Positions 43,812 to 55,639 of a DNA stretch of 64,000 nt are shown here, in pieces. Source of the stretch: Asterias rubens (lineage: Eukaryota). The translations under genes and the position numbers were made by a program. Within the stretch, counting starts at the first letter, position 1. Every line of letters begins with the position of its first letter. The DNA is taken from contig NC_047067.1 of NCBI RefSeq assembly GCF_902459465.1, positions 15,190,001 to 15,254,000 on the forward strand, read 5' to 3'. Under the pieces are notes generated by a model. The model worked only from the letters and a program-made list of their open reading frames with translations. It did not search any database and was not told where the DNA came from.

Positions 43812-43887
43812 ATGGCAACGTACGTGATTTTGGGAGTTATGGTCATGGTAATGTGTGTCAATGGAGGCAGTGACCGCTACGTTAAAG
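43812..43887 (+). CDS. Secreted Kunitz/antistasin protein, predicted exon 1 (signal peptide)
   Basis: AAAATGG start; MATYVILGVMVMVMCVNGGSDRYVK plus 1 nt, then a GTAGGT donor (phase 1, compatible with the Kunitz exon). The link across the 8.8-kb intron is inferred. Confidence 0.7.
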
Positions 43888-43919
43888 GTAGGTACAGTTA
43901 TATTAATAATGGTGGCTTC

Positions 43920-44304
43920 CTATAATTAAATAGCGCGCATATCCGTCAACATTCGGTATTTTCCTGTAAGGTATGTGGGACTACATTTGAAATATGAGGC
44001 CTTTACTCCTTATACATAGCACCATGTAATGGTTTGCAAGGTGCTGTGGCGCAATAAACTGTCAATCAAACCAGGAACACCGGGGCGAACACCCTCTCTT
44101 TTCGACAAGTGCACTTGGTTATTTTACGTGCGTTACACAACACACGGGACCAACGGCTATACGTCCCCCCACCCGAAGGACGAAGCATCGATGGGTGTCT
44201 TTCTTTAGGACACAAGTGTCACGACTGGGACTCGAACCAACTCTGCGGACCAGAAACACCAGAGTTTGAGTCCGGTGCTCTTAACCGCTAGGCCAGGACA
44301 CGCC
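43920..44304 (-). mobile_element. Near full-length tRNA-derived SINE
   Basis: Head GGCGTGTCCTGGCCTAGCGGTTAAGAGCACCGGACTC (A-box), GGTTCGAGTCCC (B-box), central GCACGTAAAATAACC block, and a GCGCTATTTAATTA tail. Confidence 0.85.
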
Positions 44305-46242
44305 AAGGAGAATAAATCAGTGTTTTCCCCAAAAATAATTACAAAGCTAATATAAAATCAAATAAAACGTAAAGTTTATTAGATTGCACGCCTATACCGT
44401 CTCATTTCGAAAGTAAAAATGTATATTTTGATAGAGGAATGTGTACAAAACAAACTCTGCGAAAGCTGATCAGCTTTTCATTACGTTTGATTATCGTAGT
44501 GATTGTTGGGAAGATTTGTTTCGTCCCTGTGGTGAAATCGATAAGAGTCCGGTGGTCCATTCTAGATTTTTCTTGAATTTACAGTTTTTTCTGGAAAGCC
44601 ACAATGTCACATTATATGATACTCTGTGCTCCTGCATAAGTGTGATGTTTCACAAAGGTGATATTGTTTTTACCATAGCAGAAGAGTTATAGTGAGAAAG
44701 ATATTGGGTATTTATATTAGAAAATATGGAACTTTCAAGAATAATTCGCCTCTCATAACTTTCCTGGTTCAAAATCCGGCTAAGGTTATGAGTATAAGAT
44801 CGAGTGTTTATTCTATTCTATGCTATGAGAGTTTTCCCCAGGCCCGCCAGTTTTTCCTCCTTCCGGAAATAACAAACACTTTCGATATATTACGGATGTG
44901 GTAATTGCAATGGGTCGGTGTGGCTTGCTGCCATACGACAGCCCTGCTGCGAACGCATTTCACAGGGTGCTGAAGTATAGTATCGCCACAGTTGCTTGAA
45001 AAAACCCATACATGTACGTCCCGTTTATAGTTATTTCCTTGGTTTAGTTAAGAAAGATTTGATTGATGTTTTATAGTCAATTCAGTCAGTGTCTTATTCT
45101 AATGTCAAACCTAGGCCCATCAAGTCCATGATTGCATCAAGGATTCAGACGGGACTGTAATAATAGGCCTACTCTTATGGCAAAACGATAACAAAAGCAA
45201 AATAATTATATATGTTTGAAAAACAAAACAACTCACCAGCTGAAAGTGTGCATATTTGGTAATAGTTATCATTTCATATAACCTTCTCTATGGTAAAATG
45301 AAAATGAAGGCAGCTTGTGAAATAAGTTTACAAAAATCTACTATCACAAAACGTTGTTTTAAGCGAGACCTAAAACGACCATTACACAAACAGACACTGT
45401 AAAAAAGTGTCGAAAGCGCCTCTGGCGTTCAACCCAAAAATGCCAGTTTTGATCCCAAGTATGTCAACTCCCTGACCCCCTGTCATTCTTTGTTGAAAAG
45501 AGTCGAGAAACACTCAGATAAATAACTTTGACAACAATCGCTTTACAAAAATCAAAATTTTCCTGTGCTATCACAAAAAATCTTTAAAGAAGTTGTACTG
45601 AAACATATATAGTTCTGAAAAGTTCTTAACAATATATTTTTGTTATCGTACATTTTGACAGTAGTTTAATATTTCGAGCGTGTCGATAGTACATTTTGGG
45701 CCATGTGCAGTTTGAAATCGTTTGATTCTTTTGTATACATTTTAAATAATTGTAGTAAGAAAGTTTCCTAAAATAGTCAGAGAATGGTCAGAGAAACACT
45801 GTCCATTCCACCTTGTACAACAACATACAATCTTATTATGAAACATTTATTTTTGATTATTTAAATGAGCATTTTATAATTAAGGTAAATTCTCCGAAAG
45901 CAATGGTTGTAAGCCTCCTGCGAAATGATTTTGTTTGAAGTGCCCCCGTTGAGTAGAAATCAATTATGTAAACGAAATTCAATCTCAAATGATCGCCTTC
46001 AGGCGATTTGTTGAGATTCAAATGTCCATGGTGTCCGTTTGTGAATACTGCGGTCAGAGATGCGGTTGGTACCCGCTGGCACCTTGCAAACTATTTTTTT
46101 ATGAAAATACCTTGATGAGTTATTGGCTGTTTTCTTAACAAAGGCACTGTATTCAACTGAAACTTTCACATGTGAATTGTATTGTATTGTATTTGTGTTG
46201 ATGATTTGGCCTGTACATGAACATTATGTTGACAAAAACCAC

Positions 46243-46595
46243 TTAAAGGGAAGGTACACGTTTGGTAATTGTCAAAGACTTGGTGTACTTGGTGTATCCC
46301 AACATAAGCATAAAATAACAAACCTATGAAAATTTGGGCTAAATTAGTCATCGAAGTTGTGAGAAAATTGTTTGAGAAAAAACACCCTTGTTGACGAATT
46401 TGTGTGCTTACAGAAAGGAATAACAGACTTCTGGCTAGAAGTCTTTTATTATTTTAGTGAGAAATTACCTCTTTCTCAAAATCTATGCTACTTCAGAGGG
46501 AGTCGTTTCCCACAATGCGTTGTACTATCAACAGCTCTCCAATGCTCATTACCATGGAAGTTTGAGTAATTACCAAACGTGTACCTTCCCTTTAA
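46243..46595. mobile_element. Kolobok-type MITE, family B
   Basis: TTAA-AGGGAAGGTACACGTTTGGTAATT ... AATTACCAAACGTGTACCTTCCCT-TTAA. Confidence 0.9.
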
Positions 46596-52898: not shown

Positions 52899-54527
52899 GT
52901 AAGAAATCAACATAGTCCCAACAAACTTTAGCCCATTGAACTTAAACATACTTTTTATACTGCATAATATAGGTTTTCTCGGTCAATTTCGGCAAATGAG
53001 TAGCAATTCTAATTCGAGCGAAATCGAATGCTACTGAAAATGGTCATTCGATTTCGTTTTATGATCAGTCAAATGTAATGTTGCGTCATTCGATTTAACA
53101 AAATAATCATTCAATTTAAAATTCATCAAAGCAGCATTCAAATTCGCAGACGCTTCTTGAGGCGGGTGTGTCACGAAAAAGAATGACGGTACGCTAAATT
53201 GAACAGAGTGCTAAAGGAATTTGACTCGACTCTAAACGACATTGAATGGCCGAATTCTGAATTTGAAACGCAGTAACAACTGGAGAGGCAAAACAGCTTT
53301 AATTCAAACACATGAAAATGAAATTGACTGCCCATTTGCCGATTTGACCAAGAAAACCTATACAAGTCTAAATTTTTGAGTGCCGAAAAAAGTTTGAATA
53401 CGGAAGTGAAAACATGGTTGAACTGCACTAAAGATACAGTTGCTATTTTGCTCCGGTTCGTTTAAATAACAAATTCAGTGGCTAACTCAAAAGCAGATTT
53501 GATGATAAAACGTGTTCGCAAACTCACTTACTTTCCCCTTATTGTTTTTGGGTTGTTTGTTTTAGATCCCCGTTCATGTTTCGATGAAGAAGACAATATG
53601 TGGTACTATCATCAAGAGTCTACGAACGGCGGAGCCGGATGTGGCGGATGGTAGGATCAAAATCACTTCCTTGTATAGAGTCTGTCTGGGACTGGGTCTG
53701 ACATCAGTAAAATGTCTGTCTGATCATGGGTCTGGTGGTGACTTAGTCTTGGCTCAAGACTGTGATTGGGTTATTGAACGAAGAAACAACACATCACTGA
53801 GTAGATGTAGGCCTACTCGTAACACTGAAAGCCATGGTGTTAAAATATCAGTCGACAAATGGTCCATAAAGGACACCATCTTATAAACTTGAGAACAATG
53901 CAGAATTTTTCTACTTTTCAGTTCGATAGACATGCACTTCTTTATTATGTCCAATTTGGTATGCGTTAAACAAAGATTTGAACATTTATTCTTTCAACTC
54001 ATAAAAATAATCTCACCATTACGATCACAAACACTCATTTGTTACATCATTTTTTTAAAGGAATTCCGACGTTTGGAGGATTGGTAGTGGTATGAATCAT
54101 CAGTGCACTTTACATCATTCGAATAAAATCAATGTTTTGTTTTACAATTTGCAGGCAAAATATAATACATGTATTTTTCAAGTATACACGTCCCTTTTCT
54201 TGCTTTTCTTAGTTCACCCCGCTAGGACGGTTATAGCAAGGACGATAAGCAGACAACTCGGTGTACTTTTTTTTGCAATCAACACTATAATTATTTCCAT
54301 ATTCCTTAATCTAACGTGAACTGAAAAATTGTATATTTCTTTTCATACTTTTGTTTTTCTTTTTCTCTTTTTGAAGCACTTGCAACGATGGATTGTTCGA
54401 ATGTTCCAGCTGCAGTAAGTTTATATTTTCTTCACAAAATAACAAGTTATTGATTGATTGTTTTAATAATATTATTTTCTGTATGAAGACTTTGACACTG
54501 ATAGCAATATCACTCATTACATTTCAG

Positions 54528-54635
54528 ATTTAATCCCTTTGGTGTGCGCTAAGATCAATTGTGAGGATAAATGCCGCTATGGATCCAAGATTGACGAGAT
54601 GGGATGCGAGACATGTGACTGCAAACCCGAACCAG
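54528..54635 (+). CDS. Secreted Kunitz/antistasin protein, exon 3: antistasin-like domain
   Basis: ACATTTCAG acceptor and GTACGG donor, 108 bp, phase 1-1. CAKINCEDKCRYGSKIDEMGCETCDC fits C-x4-C-x3-C-x10-C-x2-C-x-C. Confidence 0.9.
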
Positions 54636-55532
54636 GTACGGTCACTTACAAATGGTGATTTGGTAACCTTACACTAACAGGGGTACACGATGGGGGGGGG
54701 GGGGGACAGAATGTAATGCTTGCAAGTAGTTCAGTACATCTTGCTAAAATTTAAACACTTTGCGTTAGTTTGTAATATCCGCCATCTTGAAACCAAGCCT
54801 AGCAGAGCCAAAACCTCGTTTACGGTATTGTCAGAATATTTATGTACATGTAAGTGTGGCAATAGATTCTAGCCCCCCCCCCCCCTCCCCCACCAAAAAC
54901 GACGAAAGATGTTCGCATTCTTGTGGTAGCGCCCTCTTTTTAATCATCCTCCTCCAGCCCTTATTTATTTCATGGTGGACACAATCTCCGGGAACAGATT
55001 TCCCTTTGACATCGGCAAGACCCAACTTCGAAACGCTTACACGGTTGCTTAAAGGTTTTCCGGGTTCATGATCAGAATAAATTATTAAACAACATTGTGT
55101 ATCACAGTTTTACCGTAGACAGTTAAGCCATTATAAACATAAACACATTCACTTTTCCACTCGTGAAACTGTCTAGCCAGAAGGATGACCCTTCTTTTTA
55201 ACACTCGTTGAACTTTCTTGTAACCATATTGCACAAATGACTATGTATGACAAAGTTGTAATCTTTATCCTGTGTATAAAGGGAATGAGTATACGGTCAT
55301 GTGTTTTACTTGTACGATTGCATCGGGGATAAAAAACACCTATGTTGTATTTTGGTCTGATGCAATTATTGCTAGTGGTATGATTTGCATACATTCTAGA
55401 ATGCGGAGGTCGTGGGTTCGAATCCCGCAAAACTCTTGAAAAAAAATAGAGAATAAATATTGCTCGTCGCACCCGGTGCACTGTATGATAAAAAATAATA
55501 TTAGTTTTTTATTTATTTCCTTTTTTTTTCAG

Positions 55533-55639
55533 GCCACCTTGAAAGTTTCAGTTTCTACTGTAAAGAAGTGTGTAACTTCTGCCGGGTCAACACTAAAGTA
55601 AAGTGTCCTCCACAGTGTAGTTGCTACAACAAGATATAA
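55533..55639 (+). CDS. Secreted Kunitz/antistasin protein, terminal exon 4: 6-Cys module and stop
   Basis: Long pyrimidine tract plus CAG acceptor; phase 1 gives HLESFSFYCKEVCNFCRVNTKVKCPPQCSCYNKI*. A possible ATTAAA poly(A) signal is at 55707-55712. Confidence 0.8.

Follow-up and report, generated by a model that had tools for sequence, protein, structure and literature searches.

A six-exon sea-star gene encoding a predicted secreted mosaic of Kunitz, half-VWC, antistasin, and orphan six-cysteine modules

A stretch of 64,000 nucleotides of the sea star Asterias rubens (contig NC_047067.1, positions 15,190,001 to 15,254,000; hereafter the window, in whose numbering coordinates are given) contains a spliced gene on the + strand, whose six coding exons join into a 576-nt frame for a protein of 191 amino acids. 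The product comprises a predicted signal peptide, a Kunitz domain, half of a VWC domain, an antistasin-type module, and an orphan six-cysteine module, and its mature part contains 24 cysteines. From sequence comparison we favour, with moderate confidence, the reading that the protein would inhibit serine proteases through a single head, its three other modules serving to bind. The product is identical, letter for letter, to the RefSeq protein XP_033629299.1 of Asterias rubens ("boophilin-H2-like"). The gene is thus already catalogued by automatic annotation, and the same is true in four sea stars, so it is not hidden, as the initial annotation of this DNA had it. Since the RefSeq entry may derive from the same genome, it is not independent proof of the gene model. 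The initial annotation also described a small secreted mosaic with a Kunitz domain, an antistasin domain, and an unrecognised six-cysteine module; this part stands, while its count of three domains gives way to four, the half-VWC module having been missed.

Transcript evidence came from four of the 12 listed runs (X1–X4, from four studies and two organisms), which aligned to the region 43300–56700 as assembled contigs. None of the 12 holders is on record as RNA and X1–X4 were taken as such by guess; that they are RNA is supported by the precise removal of GT-AG introns. The four exons first proposed (43812..43887, 52737..52898, 54528..54635, and 55533..55639) were recovered with GT-AG ends and phase-1 junctions, and would join into 453 nt for 150 amino acids. 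Exon 1 belongs to the same transcript, lying on the exon-2 contig in X1 and X4, and the depth of the exon-2 contig covers 43809 and 43844 in X2 and X3. The proposed direct junction between 52898 and 54528, however, is not borne out by the contigs: from 52898 to 55531, all three spanning contigs (X1, X2, and X4) hold 229 bases instead of the 106 predicted by the four-exon model, and the X3 contigs break inside the antistasin exon. The extra sequence between the Kunitz and antistasin exons amounts to 123 bases, or 85 plus 38 nt. These bases rule out the four-exon, 150-residue form as the main product.

The larger part of this extra sequence is an 85-nt exon. Its limits, 53566–53650, follow from positions 53597 and 53612, which the exon-2 contig of every run covers and which lie 32 and 38 letters from the ends of the aligned piece. 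For the remaining 38 nt, seven candidates flanked by AG and GT were found, two of them between exons 3 and 5. The candidate at 54377–54414 has a pyrimidine tract and a GTAAGT donor, whereas the other runs into a stop. We infer exon 4 from this arithmetic and the splice signals, and it was then confirmed by the RefSeq protein and the orthologs; the joints of exons 3 and 4 are absent from the contig pieces listed, in which joints are dominated by intronic repeats. A single 123-nt exon was also considered and rejected, as none of its three AG-GT candidates covers 53597 and 53612.

Exon 1 (43812..43887, ending in phase 1) encodes the putative signal peptide (residues ~1–18, with the cleavage site placed by eye) and a short linker; it has no Pfam match, and contigs join it to exon 2. 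The N-terminus is hydrophobic in the orthologs as well, with exon 1 only 17–25% identical to the valvatid ones. Exon 2 (52737..52898, phase 1-1), which is present on contigs in all four runs, encodes the Kunitz/BPTI module. The initial Kunitz call proved correct: the exon scores 70.2 bits against PF00014 (cut-off 21; E 1.7e-19) and the orthologs score 64.7–67.1 bits, with canonical six-cysteine spacing and both loops intact. The P1 and P1' residues are Arg38 and Gly39. Both Asterias proteins share this Arg-Gly pair, whereas Patiria has Arg-Ala and Acanthaster Ser-Ala; of 18 other Kunitz domains taken from the A. rubens genome, 6 have Arg-Gly as well. According to PMC2230226 and PMC3407930, the BPTI loop reads G-P-C-K/A-R-I-I and trypsin-like inhibition needs a basic P1. 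In a Kunitz tree, the four orthologs group together (83/80) without a resolved sister among the 18 own-genome domains. The full protein has one Kunitz stretch, not two in tandem, and the RefSeq name, which was assigned automatically on the strength of the Kunitz match, is misleading because boophilin has two Kunitz domains.

Exon 3 (53566..53650, phase 1-2) and exon 4 (54377..54414, phase 2-1) together encode module 2, which has six cysteines and aligns to the first five (Cys1–Cys5) of VWC domains. When 55 VWC domains from 25 own-genome loci were made into a profile, its four sequences scored 15–19 bits against it, a score reached by none of 250 full shuffles of each sequence; hhalign gave a probability of 70% (E 4e-05), and an Atlas search listed VWC clusters first (0.78, a lead only). 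The alignment covers positions 2–36 of the 58-position profile, and subdomain 2 is lacking; with six cysteines instead of ten, module 2 has no Pfam match, including the full VWC domain (PF00093), at E values up to 10. In Crossveinless 2, the VWC cysteines pair as Cys1-4, Cys3-5, and Cys2-8 (PMC6270503). Since subdomain 2 is gone, the sixth cysteine of module 2 probably replaces the Cys2-Cys8 bond and closes Cys2, by analogy with that pairing.

VWC-like exons holding only the first five or six cysteines also occur elsewhere in the A. rubens genome. An array of VWC/pacifastin-like exons (L093, L096, L097, and L099; G000:C21, 4.15–4.22 Mb) contains the first six cysteines with Cys5-x4-Cys6 spacing and has no Cys-Cys end in the segment seen, which suggests that the genome makes repeated use of truncated VWC modules. 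A VWC-rich gene lies ~370 kb downstream of the gene described here, on its contig and strand (G000:C6, 15.62–15.69 Mb). A search with exon 3 of the own genome matched only the exon itself. No longer proteins sharing words with module 2 were found, which is weak evidence, and a PDB sequence search with modules 2 and 4 returned chance-level or kelch-like matches only. The pacifastin reactive loop has four residues between Cys5 and Cys6. Module 2 was rejected as a Pacifastin domain (PF05375), for it has Cys5-x2-Cys6, lacks a Pfam match at E up to 10, and its locus is absent from the 18 own-genome matches.

Exon 5 (54528..54635, phase 1-1) encodes the antistasin-type module, also rightly called at the outset (E 8.7e-06). 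Its PF02822 score is 26.6 bits as an exon and 21.4 bits in the full protein, against a cut-off of 21.2; the orthologs score 21.4–29.6 bits, with 27.4 and 29.6 in the two distant ones. In hirustasin, a member of the antistasin family, P1 comes after the P2 cysteine (PMC3014083). The equivalent residue here is Glu, and across the four orthologs it is Glu, Glu, Asp, and His, so that no Arg or Lys follows the second cysteine; Arg stands at this site in 19 of 30 other modules extracted from 30 own-genome loci. Because of these residues, the module is unlikely to be a second trypsin-inhibiting head.

The coding part of exon 6 (55533..55639, including the TAA) encodes module 4, 34 residues with the pattern C-x3-C-x2-C-x7-C-x3-C-x-C and, as first noted, without any Pfam match. 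The six cysteines are invariant in all four orthologs and are predicted to form three disulfides. A four-sequence profile searched against 1.84 billion representatives matched only P0002 of its own family and a repetitive protein, the latter spuriously over a 13-position stretch; a 34-position profile has little reach. By these searches, module 4 appears to be found only in this sea-star family. AlphaFold2 with the four sequences modelled it at a pLDDT of 85.8 as one helix (residues 2–18) and a loop without strands, the first three cysteines lying on one helix face. For the whole protein from a single sequence the pLDDT was 37; therefore, there is no usable model for modules 1–3. Foldseek returned one match for the module-4 model (E 7.9) and VIA a best Z of 2.9 to generic helical pairs, 34 residues being a weak fold test, and the missing match does not show that module 4 is a new fold.

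Several assignments of module 4 were tried and rejected. As a ShKT domain (PF01549), it has C-x3-C-x2-C at the start instead of the end, where that family carries it behind three earlier cysteines, and it scores 6–9 bits when no member falls below 54 (hhalign 24%, 13 columns). As a degenerate antistasin domain, it scores 2–4 bits, equalled by 45–103 of 250 shuffles (hhalign 1.7%). The locus L002, considered as a paralog, gave an E value of 0.12 and keeps two of the six cysteines. No cysteine-complete paralog was found in the own genome, where a degenerate module-4 pattern had seven matches versus six for the control and the later cysteines continue only in the gene itself. From these own-genome searches, the gene appears to be single-copy.

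Orthologs of 187–191 amino acids with the same layout are present in A. amurensis, Acanthaster planci, and Patiria miniata (XP_071791814.1, XP_022111369.1, and XP_038071675.1), with identities to the A. rubens protein of 97%, 57%, and 58%, respectively. The orders to which Asterias on the one hand and Acanthaster and Patiria on the other belong have long been separated. All 24 mature cysteines are invariant across the four sea stars; the precomputed domains of the RefSeq proteins are Kunitz alone or Kunitz plus antistasin. The protein is acidic (net −9 to −11), of the 19-kDa class, and has neither an N-glycosylation sequon nor a conserved dibasic site. Compared with the two distant orthologs, the half-VWC module is the most conserved (74–76% identity, with 17 of 19 core residues identical), followed by the Kunitz (60–68%) and antistasin (56–61%) modules, and the last module is the fastest-evolving mature one (48–52%).

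Phase-1 introns flank every module, and module 2 is in addition interrupted by a phase-2 intron. Such boundaries fit exon shuffling, as first suggested; no donor gene was identified in the own genome, which holds 27 Kunitz, 146 VWC, and 42 antistasin matches. Mosaic Kunitz proteins are common in invertebrates. The protein is a new arrangement of mostly known parts, and the four-module order, kept in four sea stars, is apparently undescribed in the literature searched. That search, which lay outside most subscription journals, found no paper citing the accessions or about the protein, and none on Kunitz plus antistasin in sea stars; the echinoderm papers, judged by titles and the starts of abstracts, were not on this protein. 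The searchable supplements of PMC9971248, PMC9630195, PMC10448888, PMC11093393, and PMC9759900 contained no row tied to it.

In the mechanism that we favour, the protein is probably secreted into body fluid or matrix, as the hydrophobic N-terminus in the four orthologs suggests. A trypsin-like serine protease would take up the P1 Arg of the Kunitz loop in its S1 pocket and be blocked in a substrate-like manner, as described for BPTI and the first domain of boophilin in PMC2230226 and PMC3407930. Modules 2–4 would most likely serve in binding or positioning and add no further inhibitory head; given its strong conservation, the half-VWC module would be the likeliest partner-binding surface. Several observations weigh against this account. 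The P1 residue is Ser in Acanthaster, so that a basic residue there is not universal, and module 2 is better conserved than the Kunitz domain; selection may therefore act on a function other than inhibition. Cysteine spacing supplies most of the VWC signal of module 2, for shuffles with fixed cysteines reached its score in 8, 15, 57, and 31 of 250 cases (the score lying above 77–97% of them), and the comparison rests on four sequences, two of which are 97% identical. In the literature and data searched, we found no activity, tissue, or proteomic evidence.

A first alternative, to which we grant a minor chance, is that the protein is mainly an extracellular adaptor or a binder of growth factors or matrix, a miniature of CRIM1- or kielin-type proteins with VWC and antistasin domains, in which the half-VWC module is selected and the Kunitz loop is secondary. 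The high conservation of module 2 and the varying Kunitz P1 (R/R/S/R) speak for it, as does an own-genome gene with VWC and antistasin matches (C1:4.27–4.28 Mb), and VWC subdomain 1 contacts BMP-2 in Crossveinless 2 according to PMC6270503. The Ile residues of the Crossveinless 2 hydrophobic patch described there (Cys2+1 and Cys2-5), however, correspond to Gly and to N/N/G/E in the four orthologs, a longer loop of differing length making the second mapping unsure. Module 2 also has a Gly-Gly between Cys2 and Cys3 that occurs in none of the 55 own-genome VWC domains, and it offers no free N-terminal clip segment, being preceded by the Kunitz domain. A complex prediction of module 2 with an own-genome dimer, which we take to be a BMP2/4-like ligand, scored 0.16 (mark 0.34) and is no evidence either way.

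It is less probable that the protein is a true multi-headed inhibitor, as the initial annotation had supposed, with the Kunitz domain, the antistasin module, and perhaps a pacifastin-like module 2 each directed at a different protease. Both the Kunitz and the antistasin modules pass their Pfam cut-offs in all four orthologs, and a non-basic P1 can inhibit, for instance the Thr of a sea-anemone Kunitz domain (PMC3407930); moreover, a protein secreted from crown-of-thorns spines combines Kunitz, pacifastin, and thyroglobulin domains (PMC10448888). Nevertheless, the P1 equivalents of the antistasin module (E/E/D/H) share no common chemistry, and module 2, with its Cys5-x2-Cys6 spacing and no Pacifastin match, has no pacifastin-type loop, which together make several heads doubtful.

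A defensive protein, whose last module would be an antimicrobial or ion-channel effector carried by protease-protective domains, is improbable. Scorpion short-toxin clusters came first in the Atlas search with module 4 (0.85, under the lead level of 0.9), this module evolves fastest, and three of the four orthologs have an amphipathic helix in it. Among the features of the cystine-stabilised alpha/beta fold, it has C-x3-C, C-x-C, and a helix, but its model, a weak test of folds at 34 residues, is a long helix without a beta-hairpin. Its net charge falls from +3 through +2 and +1 to 0 across the orthologs, and no conserved dibasic site would allow its release. Toxin families are typically expanded, in contrast to this apparently single-copy gene, and nothing was found pointing to the toxin or factor Xa roles raised earlier. 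Least probable of all is that the 150-residue form is a minor isoform skipping exons 3 and 4 together, for although such a skip of 123 nt would leave an open frame, these bases are in all three spanning contigs, exon 3 is on the exon-2 contig in all four runs, and all four database proteins have the half-VWC module; assembled contigs drop rare variants and do not themselves show the absence of a skipping form.

We put forward tentatively, and with clearly less confidence than the inhibitor interpretation, that module 4 might be an undescribed, disulfide-tied helical mini-domain restricted to sea stars, and that module 2 might be a VWC subdomain 1 that closes on itself and binds a conserved partner with its near-invariant surface. 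If true, the protein would be a lineage-specific adaptor bringing a protease-inhibiting head to a growth-factor or matrix site instead of a plain inhibitor, and a compact case of a new extracellular protein arising from shuffled phase-1 modules and one newly born module. The greater conservation of the half-VWC module relative to the recognisable inhibitor domains points to a partner, and module 4, being small, would be an inexpensive subject for structural study and might offer a new peptide scaffold.

The 5' UTR part of exon 1 extends at least over 43535..43811, the X1 contig covering 43535–43885 without differences, and has an in-frame TAA at 43770 upstream of the start ATG; four upstream ATGs with short frames of 2–23 codons lie at 43540–43634. 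The 3' UTR is located at 55640..56640, where contigs stop at 56320, 56320, 56357, and 56640, with an AATAAA at 56613; at 56437, the X4 contig has ~70 extra bases relative to the window. Among the rows listed, nine coding differences separate the contigs from the window, of which five are synonymous, including both in exon 3, and none removes a cysteine. At 55564, all four runs have T instead of A, replacing Lys167 with Asn in the last module; the window base may be a minor allele or an error. The first intron (43888–52736, 8.85 kb) is full of high-copy repeats, some of which also occur elsewhere in the window; at its end stands a low-complexity, GTT-rich tract near 52300–52680.

Elsewhere in the window, a cluster of single-exon rhodopsin-family G-protein-coupled receptor (GPCR) genes occupies both strands from 1265 to 40631; all three tested have a 7tm_1 match and weaker chemoreceptor-type matches. 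The segments 25200–33372 and 33373–41568 are 8.2-kb tandem copies, 99.3% identical, that hold two single-exon GPCR genes each; either the duplication is recent or the assembly has placed two haplotypes side by side. In the first copy, a one-base indel near 27892 splits the minus-strand receptor into two frames; in the second copy it is whole (35530–36705). Two open segments on the + strand at 61814–62303, without Pfam matches, presumably resemble the N-terminus of syntaxin-17.

The protein can be compared with several known systems. Like tick boophilin, its second-best PDB sequence match, it is acidic, predicted to be secreted, and has a canonical Kunitz domain with a basic P1; boophilin, however, binds thrombin with two Kunitz domains in tandem (PMC2230226), where the present protein has one Kunitz domain and three unrelated modules. 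With the leech antistasin family, such as hirustasin, it shares a six-cysteine antistasin module above the Pfam cut-off, but P1 is Arg there and Glu, Asp, or His here, where a single module stands inside a mosaic. Module 2 resembles VWC subdomain 1 of Crossveinless 2, chordin, kielin, and CRIM1 in the Cys1–Cys5 spacing and in the Y-x-x-x-E and C-x-C-x-D-G patterns; besides the Gly-Gly described above, it differs in the Cys5–Cys6 gap, which spans two residues here, whereas 54 of the 55 VWC domains from the own genome have four. Finally, oki.258.16 of the crown-of-thorns is likewise a secreted sea-star mosaic with Kunitz and VWC/pacifastin-like modules; at ~184 kDa and with another domain set (Kunitz, pacifastin, and thyroglobulin), it is not this gene, whose motif and accession are absent from the supplementary rows of PMC10448888.

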